Of a DNA stretch of 21,794 nt, positions 1 through 9,543 are shown piece after piece (position 1 is the stretch's first letter; every line of letters starts with the position of its first letter). The translations under genes were made by a program, and so were the position numbers. Source of the stretch: a virus (lineage: Duplodnaviria > Heunggongvirae > Uroviricota > Caudoviricetes); the IMG/VR virus record IMGVR_UViG_2737471841_000006, positions 1-21,794 of that record; one strand, written 5' to 3'. The notes under the pieces are model-generated. The model ran no database searches. It was not told where the DNA came from and was given only the letters and a program-made list of their open reading frames with translations.

Positions 1-1236
1 CTACGATAACCGCGCATTCAACATGGCTACCTGTTCGTCGTTCATGTCATCAATCCACATACCGTAAATTTCATACACCATCTGCGCAGTTTCATGCCCC
101 ATCTGGCTGGCTATAAACGCCGGGTTCGCTCCTGCCGTCAACAGCCAGCAGGCAAAAGTATGCCGCGTATGGTACGGATTACGGCGGCGAATACCAGCAC
201 GTTTTACTGCTGCATTCCATCTCGCACCCAAACTGCTTACCGAGTAATAAGGTTTCTGTTTTCCGTTACACACTCTGGGCATGAAAACAAAATGCAGTTT
301 TTGCTTTTCGGTTCTGCCGTACTCCCGATGGTAAAAAGTGATTTCGCCTTTGCGATGATGCCCGGTCAGTTTGTATTGCTCCTTCAGTGCTTCAAGAGCA
401 GGCTGCAGTAGCGTTACTGTCCGGATCCCGGCATTTGTTTTTGGGGGACCGAACATATCAAGTATCGTCAGGTTTCTTCTGACATTCACTATTCCCTTCT
501 CGAGATCCACATCCTCCCACGCCAGAGCTGCCAGTTCCCCGTGACGAAGTCCTGAGTAAACGGCAAATTTCCACAAGTTCTGGCTCTGTCCTTTTTCACT
601 TTCCATTAATGCATTGAATTCTGTTTTAGATAACGGATCAGGCTTTATTCTGTTTCGCTGTAATTTTTTTACTCCTTCAAATGGTTTGGTTGATATAAAT
701 CCCGACTGATACGCAAAACGTAACAGCGAACAGAGCAGGGCGATATAGTTATCAACTGTGCGCACGGTTCTTCCTTTTTTGTTGGATCTTGGATTATCCA
801 GGTAAAGCGTTTCTCCATGCAGCAGTTCATTCCGGTAGTTTAGGATATCGCTATAACGAATATGTGATATCGGGGTACTTTCACAAATTATTATTCTGAG
901 TGTTTTTAATTGTGATTTCGTTTTCTTCATTGTATTTGTTGTTAACTCTGTCTCTTTAATTTTTGTCCAGATATCACAAAGCTCCCCGAACGTTTTTATG
1001 ACTCTCGTTGTCACCATTTTTGCCCCAGTGCTGGACTGGGGAAAACGTCTTAAATACTCAAATTCACCGGAGTTTATTTCATGAACTATCAGCGCTCTTA
1101 AATTTCCGGCCTTTTTAATATTACTGTTTGTAATCTCCCAGCCTTTTAATGTTTCCCGACATCGTTTTCCTCGAAACATGAACCAGATGCGAATGTTTCT
1201 ACCTCTAATCTCGACACCTGTTGGTAATTTAGACAT
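1..1236 (-). CDS. intR: Tyrosine-type site-specific integrase (Rac prophage IntR-like), complete 411 aa
   Basis: 411-aa minus-strand ORF with ATG at 1236..1234 and TAG stop at 3..1 (window begins on the stop). C-terminal region has the tyrosine-recombinase signature (..HTRHTFACWLLTAGANPAFIASQMGHETAQMVYEIYGMW..). Matches my recollection of K-12 IntR in length and sequence. Confidence 0.92.
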   Translation of the reverse strand: MSKLPTGVEIRGRNIRIWFMFRGKRCRETLKGWEITNSNIKKAGNLRALIVHEINSGEFEYLRRFPQSSTGAKMVTTRVIKTFGELCDIWTKIKETELTTNTMKKTKSQLKTLRIIICESTPISHIRYSDILNYRNELLHGETLYLDNPRSNKKGRTVRTVDNYIALLCSLLRFAYQSGFISTKPFEGVKKLQRNRIKPDPLSKTEFNALMESEKGQSQNLWKFAVYSGLRHGELAALAWEDVDLEKGIVNVRRNLTILDMFGPPKTNAGIRTVTLLQPALEALKEQYKLTGHHRKGEITFYHREYGRTEKQKLHFVFMPRVCNGKQKPYYSVSSLGARWNAAVKRAGIRRRNPYHTRHTFACWLLTAGANPAFIASQMGHETAQMVYEIYGMWIDDMNDEQVAMLNARLS

Positions 1237-1237
1237 A

Positions 1238-1453
1238 TCATGAGTCTTTGATAAACTGATTTATCTTTGGATAGTTGTACCAGATAATCCCTCGTTTGCT
1301 GTCTGGCTTACCTAAAGGAGATACTCGTTTGAAGTGGAAGCCCTCCACCCAACAGTTCTGGCGGTATGCTTCAATTTGTCTGGCCCCCAGACCAGTGCGA
1401 AGCATCAGGCCGTATTCAACCATCCACTCTTCATTAAAGATTACTTGTGCCAT
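1238..1453 (-). CDS. ydaQ: Excisionase-like small DNA-binding protein (Rac xis / YdaQ-like), about 71 aa
   Basis: Small ORF immediately upstream of int on the same strand; its TGA stop (1240..1238) sits one nt from the int ATG. Start chosen at [10 protein letters not shown] (ATG 1453..1451); the track ORF extends to 1477 as an alternative start. Confidence 0.7.
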
Positions 1454-1552
1454 CGCATCACCTCTGGCAGGCGCCAATGTTAGACTGAAATTGACGCCTG
1501 ATGTTGATTATTAATAATCAGCTATGAAGTTTTAATTTGAATACAATGCAAT

Positions 1553-1741
1553 TCACGAGGACTGAAGTTTCTCGCAATTAAAATTTATCAGTTTTACTTT
1601 CTGCTCTCTGGAAACGCCTGCTTCTTTTTTACCTGAGAGCATTTTTTCGCATTCTGATTTCGTTAGTTTAGATTTTGAATATCTTGTCCAGTTAGTAGGA
1701 GTGCCACCTTCCTTTTCAATTGTAGCGGTAATTTTATACAT
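1553..1741 (-). CDS. ydaC: Rac prophage YdaC-like small protein
   Basis: Minus-strand ORF downstream of ralR. Start placed at ATG 1741..1739 (MYKITATIEKEGG..) because a GGAGG Shine-Dalgarno lies 7 nt upstream inside the last ralR codons. Alternative starts at 1753 or 1813. Confidence 0.5.
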   Translation of the reverse strand: MYKITATIEKEGGTPTNWTRYSKSKLTKSECEKMLSGKKEAGVSREQKVKLINFNCEKLQSS

Positions 1742-1940
1742 GAACGCCTCCATTAATATTTTCAGTGGTTCGTTTATTCCATCTTTCGAGCGCTTCTTTT
1801 TCACTTCCACCATAGCCAGTTCGGGATTCGCATCCGTTGCATTTTGCCCGGTAATATCCTGAAATGTCTTTCACCGTTACTGATGGACAACCACAAAACG
1901 GACATGGTTTAACATCGTCATATCTCAAAGTTTTTGTCAT
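1734..1940 (-). CDS. ralR: Restriction alleviation protein RalR/Lar, about 68 aa, with CPFCG..CNGC zinc-ribbon-like motif
   Basis: ORF MTKTLRYDDVKPCPFCGCPSVTVKDISGYYRAKCNGCESRTGYGGSEKEALERWNKRT.. matches the K-12 Rac RalR/Lar sequence as I recall it. ATG at 1940..1938; sits between recT and ydaC as in Rac. Confidence 0.75.
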   Translation of the reverse strand: MTKTLRYDDVKPCPFCGCPSVTVKDISGYYRAKCNGCESRTGYGGSEKEALERWNKRTTENINGGVHV

Positions 1941-1984
1941 AAAAACTATCTCACGTTGGCGGTGCATTACACCGCCAGGCTGGA

Positions 1985-2818
1985 TTATTCTTCTGGATTA
2001 TCGATTACACTGTATTCCCCGGCTATAACCGATATGTCGTCTGGATTAATTGTTTCCACCTCTTTTCCATCCATCGATACTGCACGCTGGATTTCAATAG
2101 ATACCGGCAGATACTTGAACAGTTTTCGTATCACTGTCTTTTTGGCCATGTCTTCAAAGTGTTCATCCCAGATGGACGACGCCCCTTTTGACGCTGCGTT
2201 TTTTGCCGCCTTGCTGTGTGTGTCGCGAACTTTTTCTACTTGTTTGCTGGTCATGACTTCAAACTGCACTCCTCCGTCTTTCAGTTTTGCAACAGCATAG
2301 ACATGGGTTATAGGGGCATCTTCGTTTTCACCGGGACGATGAACCAGTTTTTCATCAAGGCCAAGTTCATAGCTGAATTCATCACATTCACGGACAACAC
2401 GAGCTGACAGACTGATGATTTGACCTGATCGACGGGCAAGGTCGATCATGCCGCGATAACCGATGATCAGCTGTACGTTCTTCTTACCGTTTTTTGCTTT
2501 TCCGTTGCCGAACGGTAGCAGATATGCATGACCGAGGGCGCTACCTGGCTCAAGTCCGAGCTGTGAACACTGTACGATGGCACCGATAAAACTCGTCGAG
2601 TCACAGTTTCTTAGTTCCGGTACTTTACGGATTTCTGTTGTAGCAATGCGGATCATGCGTTCCGCTGTCATGTGACGTGGCAGAGCTGCTGCCAGTTGCG
2701 CTTTCATTGCCGGGCTGTTAATCACGCACAGCACATCCTTATCGTTAACTGCTGCTGGTGCACGGTTTCCCTGAGTTTTTTGCAGATCGGCTTTTGCGAT
2801 AGGTGGTTGCTTAGTCAT
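1985..2818 (-). CDS. recT: Recombinase RecT (single-strand annealing protein)
   Basis: ORF beginning [24 protein letters not shown].. and ending ..[11 protein letters not shown], recognisable as RecT. ATG 2818..2816 overlaps the recE stop (2813..2811) by 8 nt, the classic recE/recT coupling. Track ORF extends to 2875. Confidence 0.93.
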
Positions 2819-5462
2819 TTGCATACTCCTTAGCCCAGCGGGGCAGTGATAACGTCTTAATAGCTGGCCATTCATCGGTATTTAGGCAGTCAGCCAGGGT
2901 CCGCAGATTGCGGTGATATTCCTGCTGGCCTGCCAGTTTTGCTTCTTCGCCCATCATGAAAATCTCAACCGGATAACGTCCGCATTCAACAGTTGTGCTG
3001 GCAACCAGAAAAACGAAAGTTGGCTGCACACCAAACTGTGCTTCATAACCGTCACTGTAGAATGCATCCTGAACGTGATAGCGGTAGTCGTAATAAGCCA
3101 TTTTGAATCGTTGAATATCCGCTGTGGTTTTCACGTCCATGATCCAGTGAAATTCAGGAATAATTTTGTCCGGACGGCACCGACACAAAATTCCTGTTTC
3201 CGGATCTTCCCAGTAAATTGATGATTCAGCGTGTCCGGCGCTTTCAACAAGCCATTGCCCCAGCGGCAAAGCCATAACGCTTTGATACATGAGTTCAATT
3301 TTCCGGCCTTCTTCCGCAGTGATAACCGTTTTTCCTGTGCTTGCGCATTCCATCAGAAACGCTTTCTCTTCTTCTTTTCCGGCGTTTGTACGGCGGTTAA
3401 ATTCAGGTGCTACGATAAAGCGGTTACTGAATTCTTCCGGTTCAAGTACCCGGCAGTGGAAAGCGGTTCCTAAATCGAGCGTTTTTGTCTTTGTAGTGTC
3501 CACGGGGGCATTTTTACGCCACAAATACAGTGCCGGAGTATCAGCAATGTCATCGAGCTGAGACTTACTGACACCGGGACCCGCGTGGTAATTCTCATTC
3601 GAAATTCCGTAATAAATACCTGGCTCTATGTCTTCTACGATTACGGGATCTGCGACTTCGCCAGTTTCATCACTGCAATCGCGATGCGGATCGCTGCCAG
3701 CATTCTCATTGTGCGGATGTTCAGCGCCTTCCATTTCCTCCGGATCTTTTTCCTTAGCTTCAACCTGATTCTCTTCACCGAATGTTTCCTGGTATGTTGC
3801 GTCGCCCATCACCGCACCACAGTCAGGGCAGTTATCCCCGCCAGTCTGACCGCAGGCATTGCAGACTATTTCCGGTTCCTGTTGCACTACTGGCTCAGGT
3901 TGTTTCGCATCCGGGCTGATTTTTTCCGTTTCTGGCTGGTTCTGGTACACAGAATCGCGAGTCTGGATCCCCTTAACCCATTTCGGATCGTTCGGGTCGC
4001 TAATTCCGTCAACAAATTCACCACGTGATGCAGCAAGCAATTTATCGGCATCGACAGGATTTTTTGATGGAATGTTTTTCCGGGCTTCATGGAGTTCTGC
4101 CCGCAGTTCCTGATATTTCGCATCAACAGAATTTACCTGTGACTGAGCATCCAGCGGCTGCGTGTTCTGATGATGTTCAGTTGCATTCGGTTCCACTGTT
4201 TCAGCCGTTGCCTGTTCATCTGCCATTGCGCCAGATGGTTGTGGCTTTTCTTCATCGTCCTGTTTTCCTTCTTCTGTTACTCGCTGCGGCATCGGGGCCG
4301 AGGAGCGACCGCAGGCAATATCCACGATTTCCGGATCAGGGTTGGCATGATCGATTTCAGTCAGTACTTTGTTCAGATATTCAGTGACGTGTGCGGGGAT
4401 GACCTCGATCCCAATTGGTGCTTCTTTCACGGACGCAACCACGATGGCGCGGGAATAATCCAGCCCGCCAGGCATGGTGATGAATTTGTCGCGGAAAACA
4501 GAAAAGGGTGGTTTATTTTCAGCGATAATTTCCTCAATGCGTTTAGCGTGTGCCGGATGAAGGTTATAGATGTCCACGTCCATTGAACGGGCCAGTACGC
4601 CAGTGGCTACATCGCGCGCCAGTGACGTCAGATCGTGGACGAAACCTTCGCCGCGATCGGTGAGGTTCCCGCCGCCAGCATTAGCACCGGAAGCCGTGCG
4701 AGTGATGCGTGAAACACGATTCCCTTTTCGCCATTCTTTTGTCAGAAGACCGCGATCAATGTGTTCGGTATCCAGCCAGGCTGAAATGAAATTCTTAAAT
4801 TCATAGGGCTGATGTTTTTTCGTGATAGAGAACACTGCCTTAATTGCATCAGTCAGGCGGAGCAGGGCGGCATTATCCAGAGTTGTCGGTTCTGCCATGC
4901 TGCGTATGGCCAACAGCAGATTCTGGACATAGCTGTTTTCCTGATCCATCTCAAGAGCAGTAATGTGTTTGCGTTGTTCACGGGTGGCATGGTGCAGGTA
5001 TTTTCGATCCCCGGCTGCATACGTAAAAATGTGCAGAAGACGCTGCGTAAACCGCAAAGTGGCTACAGAGACTTCGCAATCCGGGCAATCCCCGTGAGCG
5101 CCTGCCAGTGTGTTTTCTTCCTGCCCTCCCGTCAGTTCTTCGGTTTCCTGGGCATTCTCCTGATGGTGAGCGTCGTCTGGTGCTGCTCCCGGTTTTAGTT
5201 CCCATGTCATGGAGTCTTTGCTGAGTTGATAGCGTTCACTCCAGGTAAAATCGATCTCACCTTCAGGGGGCAGGTCATTAACGACAGGAAAATTAGTGGC
5301 AACAGCTTTAAAATAGCTGCTCAGTTTTTTACCTGATTTGACGATCAGGTAGTCCAGAGTGGCGCAGGTCGATTCAAAATCGTCGCTTGCCCACAGGACG
5401 ACGTCAGGTTCACCGGATGATTTTTTCGCTTTCCGTAACAGGAAGAGTGGTTTTGCGCTCAT
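2811..5462 (-). CDS. recE: Exodeoxyribonuclease VIII (RecE), 883 aa
   Basis: Large minus-strand ORF; N-terminus [26 protein letters not shown].. and C-terminus ..[31 protein letters not shown] match RecE as I recall it. Central region appears divergent (mosaic) relative to my memory of the K-12 protein. Confidence 0.93.
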
Positions 5463-5563
5463 TGTTTTTTAACCTCAACTCAGATTAAAATTCGTTTTGT
5501 TCAGTGAATGATCTTGCCGGATACACACTGTTCATAGCCTGCGCCATACGCAGGCTATTTCTT

Positions 5564-5839
5564 TCAGATTTCACCTTTTAATTTCATTGCAATCAGCGTT
5601 GCCAGAAATGCGGCTTTTTTTTCTGCGGGCAGATTCTTACCAATGTGCACCAGACTCATTTTTTTGACACCTTCGTTAAGTGTTTTAACGTTGCCTGATG
5701 GACCATCGATATCAACCACAGTGAATGGGGTTTCTTTATTTTGTGTTTTAATCACGTGGCCAATGCGTTTTCCTTCCAGATAAACCTCGTGAACAATGTT
5801 ATCAGTAGTAACAACAGTGGATTCATAATTGGCAATCAT
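5564..5839 (-). CDS. racC: Rac prophage RacC-like protein, 91 aa
   Basis: ORF MIANYESTVVTTDNIVHEVYLEGKRIGHVIKTQNKETPF.. with AAGGAG Shine-Dalgarno 6 nt upstream of ATG 5839..5837. Track ORF extends to 5887. Confidence 0.75.
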   Translation of the reverse strand: MIANYESTVVTTDNIVHEVYLEGKRIGHVIKTQNKETPFTVVDIDGPSGNVKTLNEGVKKMSLVHIGKNLPAEKKAAFLATLIAMKLKGEI

Positions 5840-5913
5840 GTTTTTCTCCTTAATTAAGGTTGAGCGAATCCCTGCCATTGTTGGCATAAATTCAGTTTCG
5901 AGTAGTCAGTTAA

Positions 5914-6084
5914 TTAAAGTTCGTGTGCCATCTGGTGTTTTTCGGCGCAACTTTCACTACAATATTTTTTCATTTCCGTCGTTGGGATAACTCCACGCAT
6001 GAAATGAAGTGGTATTTTAATACTTTTGCTTTCTTGAATTTCTTTATTGCAAAGGTGGTAAGCACATTTGATTTTCTTAGCCAT
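5914..6084 (-). CDS. ydaE: Small Cys-rich (zinc-binding-like) protein YdaE-like, 56 aa; not in the supplied ORF track (<60 aa)
   Basis: Hand translation of the minus strand from ATG 6084..6082 gives [58 protein letters not shown], with TAA at 5916..5914. The ATG overlaps the kilR TGA (TGATG). Position between kilR and racC matches Rac gene order. Confidence 0.65.
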   Translation of the reverse strand: MAKKIKCAYHLCNKEIQESKSIKIPLHFMRGVIPTTEMKKYCSESCAEKHQMAHEL

Positions 6085-6305
6085 CACCATGATTCCGCTT
6101 TTACAGGTAAACCATCACGACCGAGGAAGACTTTAATCATGCAGTCAGAAATGCATGTTTTTGTAGTCAGGCTACGAATATAAAGTTTTCGCTTTTTAAT
6201 ATTGTTTGCCGAGGCGATATATGTCCGACCTTCATGAAGAACATAATCGCCAGGGGTTACACACTGACGTGGTATTTCATCAGTTCCGAAGTGATGAGCA
6301 ATCAT
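6084..6305 (-). CDS. kilR: Killing protein KilR (FtsZ-targeting cell division inhibitor), 73 aa
   Basis: [76 protein letters not shown] matches K-12 KilR as I recall it. GGAG lies 6 nt upstream of ATG 6305..6303. Two further in-frame ATGs at 6311 and 6317. Confidence 0.8.
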
Positions 6306-6744
6306 AATCATCTCCATTTTTTCAAATGAACTTTGTTGATGCGGTGCCTAGTGCCTCCAGGTGATGTTAACCAGTTAACAATTAACACCGGATACAAATA
6401 CCCCCCCAAACTAATATAGAGTTTTTTAACTGTTCCGCGTGCGCTTAGCCGCATTCACCGCATCACAAAATTCACTTTAAAAAGGGCGGACATCAGTCGA
6501 ACTTCAAGAAAAAACCGATGCCGCCAAAGACTACACACAGCAATGTCGTTATTCACAACCGGAGGCGCACTCCCACCATTTATATTTAACAGACAAGACC
6601 GACTCTTTATTGATACCGGAAATGCGCCTTCGTGTTGTGCCCGGTTTTATTTCACCACCTCCGGGCTTCGGTGGTCTCGGCTATACCCCTACAGCGAGAG
6701 CTTGTGTTAACATTTCAATACCCTTACAGTCGAGAGTTATTGAA

Positions 6745-7234
6745 ATGTTGGATGTATTTACTCCATTGTTGAAACTTTTTGCTAAAGAGCCACATCGAAA
6801 GACTTATGTACACGATTATCATTTTTGGCCTCACTCTCTGGCTGATACCGAAAGAGTTTGCTGTCGTATTTAATGCTTATACTGAAATAACCTGGCTCTT
6901 TCAGATTATAGTTTTTGCCTTTTCTTTCGTGGTTGCCATTTCCTTCTCAAGATTGCGAGCACATATTCAAAAACATTATTCATTGCTACCAGAGCAACGA
7001 GTATTGCTTCGTTTATCTGAGAAAGAAATCGCTGTATTTAAAGATTTCCTTAAAACAGGAAATCTTATTATCACTTCTCCTTGCCGTAACCCGGTTATGA
7101 AAAAATTAGAACGGAAGGGCATCATTCAACATCAGAGTGATGGCGCAAACTGTTCTTATTATCTCGTCACCGAAAAATACTCCCACTTTATGAAGTTATT
7201 CTGGAACAGTAGGAGCAGACGTTTTAATCGTTAG
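6745..7234 (+). pseudogene. sieB: Superinfection exclusion protein B (sieB), reading frame broken by an apparent 1-nt insertion near 6792-6796
   Basis: MLDVFTPLLKLFAKEP (frame of ATG 6745) switches frame and continues as ..IERLMYTIIIFGLTLWLIPKEF..SRSRRFNR in the 6779..7234 ORF. 16 + 1 + 145 residues gives 162 aa, the intact SieB length. First in-frame ATG after the shift is at 6806. Confidence 0.6.
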
Positions 7235-7386
7235 CTTACTGTGTACTTCTCCAACCAGCGACGCGCGCCAACTTCGGTTTTAAACGTTTTGCTTTTGGTA
7301 TACGTCATGGCGGTGAACGTTCCATCCTGGTTGGGGAACACGCCACACACCAGGGATTCGTTGTTGCTAAGATCGATAGTATCCAT
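7231..7386 (-). CDS. ydaF: Rac prophage small protein YdaF-like, 51 aa
   Basis: ORF MDTIDLSNNESLVCGVFPNQDGTFTAMTYTKSKTFKTEVGARRWLEKYTVS from ATG 7386..7384, with AAGGGA upstream. TAA stop at 7233..7231 overlaps the sieB TAG (7232..7234) on the opposite strand. Confidence 0.65.
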   Translation of the reverse strand: MDTIDLSNNESLVCGVFPNQDGTFTAMTYTKSKTFKTEVGARRWLEKYTVS

Positions 7387-7517
7387 GTTGACCTCATTTT
7401 CCCTTAACGCTGGGGGAATTGGCTTCATAGTTGCTCCGTATCGTGGAGCCTACGACCTGCTTTTAACCACATCAGGTGAGGTGATATCCTTACAAATGGT
7501 AATTTGCTGTAAGGATA

Positions 7518-7796
7518 TTAATTATGGATATTAAATTTCGCTGTCCTCATTGCCGATCTCGCTACATTGAGATCGACGAGCACTCTGGCTCTGACAATGA
7601 TCGTTTTATCTGCGGTGATTGTTTTGCGGAAATCAAAGATTCTGATTTCAGTGAACACTTTAATAAAACAATCAATAAAATCATCCGGACAGTTAAAAAC
7701 CGCAGGAACAAGTAGTTTGTATAACTTCTCAATCTGATGTCTCAGGGGGCTGGTATCTATTTTTAACACCAGTCCCTGCTTTTCATCTGCGATCAT
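7518..7796 (-). CDS. ydaG: YdaG-like protein, 92 aa here; first gene of the putative leftward early operon
   Basis: ORF MIADEKQGLVLKIDTSPLRHQIEKLYKLLVPAVFNCPDDFIDCF.. with TAAGGGA 7 nt upstream of ATG 7796..7794. Lies directly downstream of the PL-like promoter and operator repeats. A plus-strand ORF fully overlaps it (see findings), so the true coding strand is uncertain. Confidence 0.45.
   Translation of the reverse strand: MIADEKQGLVLKIDTSPLRHQIEKLYKLLVPAVFNCPDDFIDCFIKVFTEIRIFDFRKTITADKTIIVRARVLVDLNVARSAMRTAKFNIHN
7524..7715 (+). CDS. Candidate 63-aa zinc-ribbon mini-protein antisense to the ydaG-like ORF
   Basis: ORF MDIKFRCPHCRSRYIEIDEHSGSDNDRFICGDCFAEIKDSDFSEHFNKTINKIIRTVKNRRNK. Has a CxxC-x17-CxxC arrangement, a basic C-terminal tail, and AAGGA Shine-Dalgarno 8 nt upstream of the ATG. 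Called on sequence features only. Confidence 0.35.
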   Translation: MDIKFRCPHCRSRYIEIDEHSGSDNDRFICGDCFAEIKDSDFSEHFNKTINKIIRTVKNRRNK

Positions 7797-7867
7797 CTTC
7801 GTATCCCCTTAACGCCGGGTGGCGGAACTGTTTGCTGAGAACACCGTGCGGTGTTTTGATGGGATGT

Positions 7868-7896
7868 AATTTAGTTTTCTCATTGTTTTTGGTCAA
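7868..7896 (-). promoter_or_regulatory. Putative sigma70 leftward early promoter (PL-like): -35 TTGACC, 17-nt spacer, -10 TAAATT on the minus strand
   Basis: Minus strand reads TTGACC(7896..7891)-17 nt-TAAATT(7873..7868), about 70 nt upstream of the ydaG-like ATG. Operator-like repeats lie in the spacer and over the -35. Confidence 0.35.
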
Positions 7897-7932
7897 GTGT
7901 TTTTGATGAGAAAACTCAATATTTGACTCAAG
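7871..7932. promoter_or_regulatory. Left operator-like cluster: repeated TGAGAAAACT / CTCAA(T/G) motifs (putative RacR binding sites)
   Basis: 7871-7885 ttagttttctcattg (reverse complement caatgagaaaactaa); 7906-7920 atgagaaaactcaat; 7927-7932 ctcaag. The 17-mer tgagaaaactcaatatt recurs exactly at 8443-8459 on the other side of racR. Confidence 0.4.
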
Positions 7933-7983
7933 ATAAAGCCAATACATTGAAATGTAAGGCTTTAAAAATTTGTGATGGGGTGA

Positions 7984-8391
7984 TTATTGATGTTTGTTAC
8001 GCTTGCGAGCTTCTAATAGCTCAGTAAATAGGCGATTAAAATTCTCAACTCGAGCGCTGAGTTCACTGATTTGTGCTTGTTGTTCGGATTTTGGAAGTGC
8101 GCGATACAGTCGCAACATCTCCAGTTCATCTTCCGATAAGTCTAAGGTGCTATTGAGTGAAACTGGGGCATCCGGAGTTTTATCCTCATCACCGAACAGT
8201 ATCCAGGTCGGTGAGCATTGTAATACCTCGGCGAGTCTATGCAAATTTTGCCCGCGCGGGGCTGTATGGTCACTTTCCCATAATGAAATTGATGAGCCAG
8301 AAACGCCAGCAGCTTTGCTTAAACCACTTTGACTTAAGCCTACCTGCTTGCGTCTTTCTCTAATTCGTTGACCTAAAGTTTTCTCGTTCAT
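7984..8391 (-). CDS. racR: Prophage repressor RacR-like (XRE-family helix-turn-helix), 135 aa from this start
   Basis: ORF MNEKTLGQRIRERRKQVGLSQSGLSKAAGVSGSSISLWESDHTAPRGQNLHRLAEVLQCSPTWILFGDED.. has a typical XRE HTH at the N-terminus. Divergent from the cro-like ydaS and flanked by operator-like repeats. Upstream in-frame ATG at 8442 (152 aa) is an alternative start; neither has a clear Shine-Dalgarno. Confidence 0.75.
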   Translation of the reverse strand: MNEKTLGQRIRERRKQVGLSQSGLSKAAGVSGSSISLWESDHTAPRGQNLHRLAEVLQCSPTWILFGDEDKTPDAPVSLNSTLDLSEDELEMLRLYRALPKSEQQAQISELSARVENFNRLFTELLEARKRNKHQ

Positions 8392-8412
8392 ATTTAGATA
8401 TCTTAATAACCC

Positions 8413-8458
8413 TTGACTTGAGATTCCTTGAGCGATTAACATTGAGAAAACTCAATAT
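8413..8458. promoter_or_regulatory. Right operator/promoter region: PR-like promoter (-35 TTGACT 8413-8418, -10 TAACAT 8437-8442) overlapped by palindrome ATTGAG-AAAA-CTCAAT (8441-8456)
   Basis: TTGAG half-sites at 8418, 8428 and 8442, with inverted CTCAAT at 8451-8456. GGAGG Shine-Dalgarno (8460-8464) and ydaS ATG (8469) follow immediately. Confidence 0.4.
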
Positions 8459-8468
8459 TGGAGGTGCA

Positions 8469-8597
8469 ATGTTTAAATCAGACGTAATTAATTATTACGG
8501 CACGAAAGCCAAAGTGGCGAAAGCTGCTGGCGTTGATCCATCTGCTGTTTCTCAATGGGGGGAAGCCGCAAACGATCGTCGGTTTCAAAATTGGTAA
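8469..8597 (+). pseudogene. ydaS: Cro-like HTH protein stub (YdaS-like), 42 aa; probably truncated at a deletion junction
   Basis: Hand translation gives MFKSDVINYYGTKAKVAKAAGVDPSAVSQWGEAANDRRFQNW then stop; not in the track (<60 aa). Good GGAGG Shine-Dalgarno. Only the HTH portion is present, a G6 run sits at 8557-8562, and a terminase frame takes over immediately. Confidence 0.5.
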
Positions 8598-9543
8598 TGC
8601 GCTGGTGGATGAACTGGACATTTTGCCGAAGGAAAAAGCCAGAACTGCGTGGCGCAAGATAATTGCGCGTATGCGTTATAAGGTTGATGGACTTCGCAAC
8701 GGTATTGACGTTACAACCACGCCAGAAGGATTCAAATTTGTCTACGAGCAGTTTGTTAAAGCCGTGCGTGAAAAAACAGAGTTGTCCTCACTGTATGGTC
8801 TGGTGCAGGCATCTACTTTCGATAATGAAAAGAACCTGCCAGCAGATTACATTCCTTCGCTTCTTGAATCATACCCTCCAGAGCTGATTAAAGCCTATCT
8901 TCGTGGACAGTTTACGAACCTGACAAGTGGTACTGTTTACCATCAGTTTGACCGGCAACTGAATAATTGCGAAGAAGTGGAGCAGCCTGGGGAGCCGATT
9001 TATATCGGGATGGATTTTAACGTTGGAAAGATGGCGGGGATCGTCCATGTGCTGCGTTTGGGTCTTCCATGTGCGGTAACTGAAATCATCAATGCCTACG
9101 ATACGCCGGATATGATCCGTATCATTAAAGAACGCTTCTGGCTGTATGACGGAAATGATTACCGGAAGGTGAGAGAAATTTATATTTATCCTGATGCCTC
9201 CGGGGATTCCCGAAAATCAAATAATGCAAGTGCGACGGATATTGCTCAGCTTAAACAGGCCGGTTTTAACGTTGTGGTGAACAGTTCGAACCCGCCAGTA
9301 AAAGATCGCGTTAACTCAATGAATGCAATGTTCTGCAATGCCAATGGCGAGCGTCGCTATAAAGTTAATGTGAAGCGTTGTCCGGTATATGCCGAATCTC
9401 TGGAGCAACAGGTCTGGGATGATAAGGGGGAGCCTGATAAAAAATCTGGCAACGATCACCCGAATGATGCAGGAGGTTATTTCATCGTTAAACAATTCCC
9501 TATTGTCAAACCGACCGGAAGAGTCACATCACTTCGGATTTAA
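8533..9543 (+). pseudogene. Terminase large subunit, N-terminally truncated fragment (Walker B-like segment plus complete nuclease domain; no Walker A)
   Basis: 336-aa frame with ALVDELD (Walker B-like) and nuclease-domain acidic motifs IYIGMDFNVG, IYPDASGD and GNDHPNDAGGY. No GxxxxGK(S/T) P-loop anywhere. Frame is open from 8488 with only a TTG at 8533. Sits directly after the cro-like stub, where replication and lysis genes would be expected. Confidence 0.6.

Follow-up and report, generated by a model that had tools for sequence, protein, structure and literature searches.

The 16-bp palindrome ATTGAGAAAACTCAAT (ATTGAG-AAAA-CTCAAT), at positions 8441-8456 of the 21,794-nt stretch of Caudoviricetes DNA analysed here (IMG/VR record IMGVR_UViG_2737471841_000006; the whole stretch is called the window), is very probably OR1, the predicted promoter-proximal right operator of a P22-immC-like, DicA/DicC-type switch in a Rac-site prophage. 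The window's module belongs, as a hetero-immune member, to a known kind, that of DicA/DicC and P22 immC, and the finding leaves the understanding of such switches unchanged and holds no surprise for the specialist. What a known operator gives is prediction, both of homo-immune phages and of the promoters that are silenced, including one driving kilR.

Palindromes around the repressor gene

The palindrome lies where a preliminary description of the sequence had placed it, and the local geometry given there was borne out. It covers the final 2 nt of the -10 of a PR-like promoter together with the expected start point, and it ends 3 nt before the Shine-Dalgarno sequence (GGAGG, 8460-8464) of a cro-type gene whose ATG lies at 8469 (Table 1). 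The identical 17-mer that had been reported from a left operator was likewise recovered: TGAGAAAACTCAATATT occurs exactly at 7907-7923 and at 8443-8459, on either side of the repressor gene, and when up to 3 mismatches were allowed it gave 3 matches in the window, a count reached in 0 of 100 shuffles. Two sites had been missed, namely the palindrome at the OR3 position (8392-8407) and OL1 over the -10 of PL (7869-7884).

Table 1. Features of the immunity region and its surroundings, in window coordinates; promoters are from a consensus scan
Feature	Positions	Strand	Description
PL leftward operon	downstream of PL	-	92-aa ORF, ydaF-like gene, kilR, recE, recT, ralR, xis, int
PL-like promoter	7868-7896	-	-35 TTGACC (7896-7891), 17-nt spacer, -10 TAAATT (7873-7868)
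OL1	7869-7884		ATTTAG-TTTT-CTCATT; inverted copy of OR1 over the PL spacer and -10; P22 OL1 position
OL2	7905-7920		GATGAG-AAAA-CTCAAT; just upstream of the PL -35; includes the left copy of the 17-mer (7907-7923)
DicA-family repressor gene	7984-8391	-	135 aa, counted from the ORF's second ATG; recognition helix VSGSSISLWE
OR3-position palindrome	8392-8407		ATTTAGATATCTTAAT; abuts the repressor start codon; each half-site one base off OR1
PR-like promoter	8413-8442	+	-35 TTGACT (8413-8418), 18-nt spacer, -10 TAACAT (8437-8442)
OR2-position element	8417-8432		18-mer 8416-8433, ACTTGAG/ATTC/CTTGAGC; contains both extra TTGAG copies
OR1 (predicted)	8441-8456		the palindrome under study; between the PR -10 and the Shine-Dalgarno; conserved core 8441-8455
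Truncated dicC/P22-cro-type gene	8469-8597	+	32 native residues followed by an out-of-frame tail of 10
Deletion junction	8559-8564		GGxGAA microhomology; cro codon 32 fused to mid-gene sequence of the terminase large subunit

Symmetry by itself carries little weight. Eleven perfect 6+4+6 palindromes were counted in the window, which makes the palindrome alone statistically unremarkable and is what speaks for a chance AT-rich palindrome without function, and the pattern ATTGAGN4CTCAAT, when up to 3 mismatches are allowed, matches 12 times against 12.3 expected, which is chance level; rarity of the palindrome was dropped as evidence on both counts. The placement of the better matches is another matter, in that four of the seven matches with up to 2 mismatches fall inside 7869-8456 (2.7% of the window), where the background rate of the rest of the window would lead one, by our own arithmetic, to expect about 0.08 further matches. 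These four are the OL1, OL2, OR3-position and OR1 elements of Table 1; all have A/T-only centres, and they bracket the repressor gene. Clustering and conservation thus exceed chance, whereas the palindrome by itself does not. Against an accidental origin stand also the exact 17-mer duplicate flanking the repressor gene and a core that is conserved against variable flanks, kept across genera and co-varying across repressor classes, and we consider such an origin hardly credible.

On the left, OL1 shows complementarity of 89% to 8438-8456 (19 nt) and of 93% to 7906-7920 (15 nt). A symmetric third operator was sought on both sides, and the OR2 and OL3 positions yielded half-sites only, the latter being CTCAAG at 7927-7932; palindromes are present at the OR1, OR3, OL1 and OL2 positions, as against the three symmetric 18-bp operators that P22 has at each promoter. 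The consensus scan of the intergenic region found no convincing sigma-70 match for the repressor gene's own promoter. A near-leaderless start of the repressor transcript from the sequence TAAGAT was considered by eye and found to be unsupported.

Besides the copy at 8442 within the palindrome, TTGAG occurs at 8418 and 8428, and the preliminary description took these two as phased half-sites spaced at about one helical turn. Both are indeed present, the first overlapping the -35 of PR, but the element that contains them is asymmetric: the consensus fits its left half only, and its right half is a direct copy of the left and not an inverted one. Nor are the copies conserved outside E. coli, since in Buttiauxella both are lost (CCTGAG and CTTGCG) though OR1 is kept. 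Among E. coli relatives, position 8432 is G or A (pi 0.31), and TTGAG at 8428 becomes TTGAA in many. The 18-mer aligns with P22 OR2 (ACTAAAG/ATTC/CTTTAGT), the ATTC centre being common to both. We regard 8417-8432 as a degenerate candidate site at the OR2 position and not as evidence for phased binding.

As the palindrome would form part of the PR transcript, 3 nt ahead of the Shine-Dalgarno, it might instead act in RNA, as a leader hairpin controlling the translation or stability of cro. The leader, however, folds no better than shuffled sequences (z = -1.28), its minimum-energy structure does not contain the palindrome's hairpin, and Rfam gives no match at the palindrome, the sole Rfam hit in the window being RalA at 1557-1735. 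Furthermore, the left copy sits upstream of the PL -35 and so outside the PL transcript, and it has an imperfect stem (GATGAG/CTCAAT). A role in RNA is on these grounds very improbable. RNAalifold was run on the PL leader hairpin, where the stems were mis-registered in the alignment.

Identity of the immunity genes and of the prophage

The preliminary description named the repressor RacR and the rightward gene ydaS, as in K-12 Rac, and direct comparison refuted both names on gene identity. The repressor scores 231.6 bits against the NCBIfam DicA model NF007257 (cut-off 101), covering positions 1-135 of 135, and is 55% identical to K-12 DicA, whereas BLASTP found no similarity to RacR (best E = 2.9). 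Its residues 1-72 match structures of P22 C2 (PDB 1adr, E = 2.7e-16; 2r1j, E = 1.3e-15), and tblastn matches of the protein to C2-type repressors span residues 1-72 only. It is built of this C2-like N-terminal helix-turn-helix domain and a short C-terminal domain; Pfam gives helix-turn-helix families only, and no S24 peptidase or LexA-like autocleavage domain was found in it.

The rightward gene passes the Pfam P22_Cro threshold with 44.7 bits, while YdaS_toxin, with 18.6 bits, falls short of its cut-off of 30, and identity to YdaS amounts to 33% over 43 aa. The window's copy reaches 54 bits against the NCBIfam DicC cut-off of 130, aligning with profile positions 1-36 of 75. In the prophage of E. 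coli E21845/O/A (L001) the gene is intact, and its 75-aa product scores 145.4 bits with the DicC model NF007282 (cut-off 130) and is 59% identical to K-12 DicC. Judged by these profile matches, the gene is of dicC/P22-cro type. In the window it is a truncated pseudogene. The junction that truncates it was recognised from the matches on its two sides: 1-8564 matches L001 at 99.5% and 8559-9922 matches another locus, L097, at 99.9%, with about 16.5 kb missing between them. None of 5,426 complete E. coli genomes contains this junction.

The E21845/O/A prophage, to which window positions 1-8564 are 99.5% identical, lies beside ttcA and carries intR, xisR, ralR, recT, recE, kilR, sieB and ydaF. With Rac-type genes beside ttcA, it is therefore a Rac-site prophage, and by this sequence identity the window's source prophage is of the same Rac-site (ttcA) type, with immunity genes that differ from those of K-12 Rac. 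Such a backbone, in which the two genes hold the map places of racR and ydaS, is what recommends a RacR operator controlling ydaS. The K-12 racR-ydaS region does have divergent genes for a repressor and a Cro-like protein with multiple operators (PMC11879457). The kinship ends with the backbone, however: the repressor is unrelated to RacR and the rightward gene belongs to the DicC/P22_Cro family, as set out above, and the K-12 racR-ydaS intergenic region, with which the names invite comparison, holds no related operator sequence, there being no match to TTGAGN4CTCAA within 2 mismatches. The immunity module of the window is a mosaic replacement. Rac-site prophages are mosaics, and racR and ydaS can therefore not be assigned from map position; a RacR operator at this place is to our mind next to impossible.

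Conservation and co-variation with the recognition helix

Conservation was assessed in 80 IMG/VR loci whose repressor is 95-99% identical to the window's, which reduce to 46 distinct immunity regions. Across these 46 relatives the OR1 core (8441-8455) is nearly invariant, while positions 8438-8440 and 8456-8457 vary, the final base of the 16-mer (8456) thus lying outside the conserved core. OL1 and OL2 are likewise conserved islands flanked by variable columns, and only one of the 16 columns of the OR3-position palindrome, the last, varies (mean pi 0.003). Mean pi of the operator columns is 0.003-0.08, as against 0.136 in other non-coding columns (Mann-Whitney p = 2e-6) and 0.068 at third codon positions of the repressor gene. 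That the palindrome is conserved among homologous immunity regions, on which the preliminary description had staked its reading, holds in a wider set too: of 82 related loci, all share one recognition helix and 79 have the 14-bp core TTGAGAAAACTCAA intact.

The pattern extends beyond E. coli. In two Buttiauxella species whose repressors are 74-75% identical to the window's, the OR1 core is kept at both OR and OL while the flanks have diverged; B. ferragutiae (L086) has the full ATTGAGAAAACTCAAT exactly at OR and at OL (in the OL2 position), and B. gaviniae (L087) keeps the OR1 core through CTCA. The OR3-position sequence ATTTAGATATCTTAAT is exact in both Buttiauxella and one base off in C. braakii. 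Within E. coli this DicA-type immunity class is common, and it occurs in two isolated phages as well: 797 of 5,426 complete E. coli genomes contain 80% or more of the 841-bp stretch 7780-8620 that spans the module, and the module recurs in HannyBb and mEp460_ev081 with 91% nucleotide identity.

Comparison of more distant repressors made it possible to ask whether operator and protein change together. A scan of GTDB genomes with a DicA alignment returned only 9 loci, including Buttiauxella and Citrobacter, and since these were few, further repressor diversity was drawn from phage records by tblastn. Six repressor classes were compared as to the 7+4+7 palindromes at their OR1 positions, which differ from class to class. 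The recognition helix is VSGSSISLWE with half-site yATTGAG in the window's class, ISHATISLWE with TGTTGAG in the C. braakii class, ISHVSVSQWE with TGTTAGT in the class of K-12 Qin and Citrobacter NCU1, VAHVTISQWE with CCTTAGG in the PPompW class, VAHVTISQWE with TGTTAGA in the BUCT708 class and KSSVSVFKWE with wwCTAAC in the phiES15 class. When the OR1 of each class was matched to all left regions, its best match lay in its own or a same-class OL, with at most 3 of 14 mismatches, compared with 4-7 for the others. This co-variation is the strongest computational support for the view that the adjacent repressor reads OR1 and would act on both sides of its own gene.

Ser33 and Leu37 of the window's repressor correspond to Val33 and Gln37 of C2, and, going by what is known of recognition by P22 C2 and 434 repressor, residues 33 and 37 would set operator specificity. 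The six pairs of helix and operator are natural material for the recognition rules of repressors of the DicA and P22 C2 type, an example being TTAAG with Val33/Gln37 (C2) as against TTGAG with Ser33/Leu37 (the window), and they could serve as orthogonal repressor parts.

Known counterparts and the proposed switch

Colinear right control regions are found in the window, wild-type P22, K-12 Qin, PPompW, BUCT708, C. braakii and Buttiauxella, with a common order of repressor ATG, palindrome (OR3), TTGAC(T), a spacer (holding the OR2 position in the window, P22 and Qin), -10, palindrome (OR1), Shine-Dalgarno and cro ATG. The TTGAC of the PR -35 is invariant in seven immunity regions, including that of P22, and in nine loci the OR1 palindrome is centred 35.5-37.5 bp from where the -35 begins (35.5 in the window, 36.5 in K-12). 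The corresponding regions of P22virB-3 are annotated in its GenBank record (OQ031658.1) as the C2-binding operators OR1-3 and OL1-3.

To P22 immC the likeness takes in both the right and the left control regions, which are colinear in operator positions, in TTGACT and in the ATTC of the OR2 position. OL2 occupies the position of P22 OL2 (TTTGAAG/AAAA/CTTAAAT), and the sequence of the PL -35, GGTCAAGTG, is common to P22 PL, Qin dicBp and the window, sitting between two operators in each. The proteins agree as well, in the C2-homologous N-terminal domain of the repressor and in the P22_Cro assignment of the rightward gene. The half-sites differ, P22 having ATTTAAG (consensus ATTTAAG-N4-CTTAAAT) and the window a TTGAG/CTCAA core, mainly a change of A to G; the operator mutation of P22 virB-3 in OR1 is this same change of TTAAG to TTGAG, the window's natural core. 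Unlike in P22, the OR2-position site is not symmetric, and the 135-aa repressor ends in a short C-terminal domain without an S24 autocleavage domain, so that induction presumably does not proceed by RecA cleavage. For Qin DicA an antirepressor has been reported (PMC10448788).

Experimental precedent comes from Qin (Kim), a cryptic prophage of K-12. Both genes belong to the same families there (DicA and DicC, at 55% and 59% identity), the divergent intergenic region is likewise 77-83 bp long and the -35 is TTGACT. An inverted repeat around a 4-bp centre lies between -10 and Shine-Dalgarno, which is the position of Oc, and related sites surround the -35 of dicBp, which follows the repressor gene and is equivalent to PL. 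In K-12, Oc is a 20-bp inverted repeat (TTGTTAGTCATAACTAACAA) that DicA binds in an in vivo assay; a single A-to-C change in it abolishes binding, and from Oc DicA represses dicC and appears to activate dicA (PMC3441716). The window differs in half-site (yATTGAG as against TGTTAGT in Qin) and in centre (AAAA as against TATG), and its module lies in a Rac-site prophage with the dicC-like gene truncated. The recognition helices differ too (VSGSSISLWE and ISHVSVSQWE), and the two modules are therefore expected to be hetero-immune. With lambda the likeness is one of plan, operators flanking the repressor gene and controlling divergent PR and PL, with the promoter-proximal site fitting the consensus best; the proteins, however, are unrelated beyond the helix-turn-helix class, the lambda sites are 17-bp and of another consensus, and neither three equivalent sites nor cooperative binding is indicated in the window.

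From these parallels the following mode of action is proposed. A dimer of the DicA-family repressor would place one helix-turn-helix on each yATTGAG half-site and leave the A/T-only 4-bp centre uncontacted, in the manner of P22 C2 and 434 repressor. Bound at 8441-8456, it would cover the PR start point together with the end of the -10 and so block rightward early transcription, and, as K-12 DicA appears to do from Oc, it may at the same time stimulate the divergent repressor gene. This autoregulatory part is possible on that analogy, no convincing promoter for the repressor having been found. The same repressor on OL1 and OL2 would silence the PL operon, including kilR and recET; the gene content of this operon was taken from the near-identical annotated prophage. 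The preliminary description's proposal that one repressor could control both early promoters is supported by the recurrence of the site at PL, its conservation, its co-variation with the helix and its colinearity with P22 and Qin. Counts of consensus mismatches suggest that affinity would be highest at OR1 and OL2, then fall to OL1 and then to the OR3 position, and weaker or accessory sites are predicted at the OR3 and OR2 positions. The DicC/Cro-like protein of intact relatives probably acts through the same operators; in the window its gene is truncated, and therefore only the repressor arm of the switch would remain.

The Cro-like protein might alternatively be the palindrome's main reader, with the operators partitioned between this DicC-family protein and the DicA-family repressor. 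The helix-turn-helix motifs of the two window proteins are similar though not identical (KAAGVSGSSISLW in the repressor, KAAGVDPSAVSQW in Cro), and K-12 DicA reportedly binds one of three right-hand sites, leaving the others for another protein. Yet the one that it does bind, Oc, is the positional homologue of the palindrome, and the palindrome co-varies with the repressor's recognition helix and recurs over PL, a promoter that the repressor has to silence. Repressor and Cro of lambda and of P22, moreover, share all operators. A palindrome serving mainly Cro is accordingly improbable.

The OR3-position palindrome, which lies in the same place as P22 OR3 and Qin Oa, may be a weak repressor site, a weak Cro site or part of the repressor gene's own promoter. 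The element keeps a TTAG-type sequence across repressor classes with differing OR1, and its likeness between the window and C. braakii classes, whose OR1 sequences differ, fits poorly with a repressor site matched in specificity. K-12 DicA reportedly binds neither Oa nor Om in isolation (data not shown; PMC3441716), and because of this occupancy of the OR3-position and OR2-position sites in the window is doubtful. A search of the literature for the core sequence, or for work on the immunity of mEp460 or HannyBb, returned nothing relevant.

These observations leave some room, if rather little, for a partitioned-operator switch in which the DicA-type repressor would read OR1, OL1 and OL2 only and the OR3 element would be read by the Cro-like protein or by RNA polymerase. 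Were this unlikely arrangement true, the module left in the window would be a locked, repressor-only remnant that silences kilR and recET and gives immunity against phages of the HannyBb/mEp460 type. The RNA polymerase option corresponds to a near-leaderless promoter as in P22 PRM. The one oddity of the region is the OR3-position element itself, TTAG-type in classes that differ at OR1, the Qin counterpart of which is reportedly unbound by DicA.

Truncation of the cro-like gene

The cro-like gene (8469-8597) breaks off at codon 32, where it is fused to a point midway along the terminase large-subunit gene, with a GGxGAA microhomology at the junction of the deletion. Compared with the closely related E21845/O/A prophage, some 16.5 kb are absent, comprising the cII/ydaT-like gene, the genes for replication, toxins and lysis, and that for the small terminase. 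A search of 5,426 complete E. coli genomes found the deletion junction in none of them.

Within the cro-like coding region lies a leftward promoter-like site reminiscent of the reverse promoters PRE and PracR4, carried here in a window from which the gene for the cII/ydaT-like activator has been deleted. The parts of the repressor gene (8277-8316) and the cro-like gene (8520-8559) that code for the helix-turn-helix are 70% complementary over 40 nt, because the homologous motifs KAAGVSGSSISLW and KAAGVDPSAVSQW lie on opposite coding strands.

Coordinates of the features described in this part
Feature	Position	Strand	Remarks
RalA antitoxin sRNA	1557-1735	plus	Rfam RF02694, 218 bits
PL leader (5' leader of the leftward operon)	7800-7866	minus	hairpin at 7840-7855
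Hairpin AAAGCC...GGCTTT	7935-7967	minus	invariant; between repressor stop codon and OL2 (predicted left operator)
Promoter-like site TCGCCA / 18 nt / AATAAT	8491-8520	minus	leftward; within cro-like coding region
Cro-like/terminase fusion, with 8469-8597	8533-9543		junction at 8559-8564

Operator-like sequences on either side of OR1

The element ATTTAGATATCTTAAT (8392-8407) abuts the repressor start codon, and among 46 distinct variants of the immunity region its variation is confined to the last base. Buttiauxella has the same sequence, and C. braakii, which has a different OR1 (the predicted main right operator), differs by a single base. The half-sites are of TTAG type, like those of the Oa/OR3 elements found at this position across all repressor classes. 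Rather than binding the repressor, the element may be a site for Cro or part of the repressor gene's own promoter, which is possibly near-leaderless.

A further likeness to OR1 occurs in the cro-like coding region, where TTTCTCAATG (8548-8557) is the exact reverse complement of the operator's CATTGAGAAA. As this half-site stands alone and codes for the recognition helix (VSQW), the match is probably a coincidence of coding.

Over a 961-bp immunity stretch that takes in c2, the two control regions and the beginning of cro, P22 virB-3 departs from the wild type at three operator bases. The one in OR1 turns TTAAG into TTGAG and so yields the half-site core natural to the window's operators.

Leader, hairpins and RalA

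The leader of PL, the leftward early promoter, is kept across immunity classes, and some 2,900 E. coli genomes, K-12 Qin among them, carry part of it. In Buttiauxella, Citrobacter and phiES15 the hairpin AACACCG..CGGTGTT gives way to AATCACT..AGTGATT, a change that amounts by eye to four compensatory pairs; RNAalifold set the stems out of register. The leader matches no Rfam family and may contain a nut-like element or one involved in RNA processing. The hairpin downstream of the repressor gene may be a terminator that shields PL from repressor-gene transcription, though its T-tract is weak. The RalA sRNA is located opposite ralR, as expected of a Rac-type prophage.
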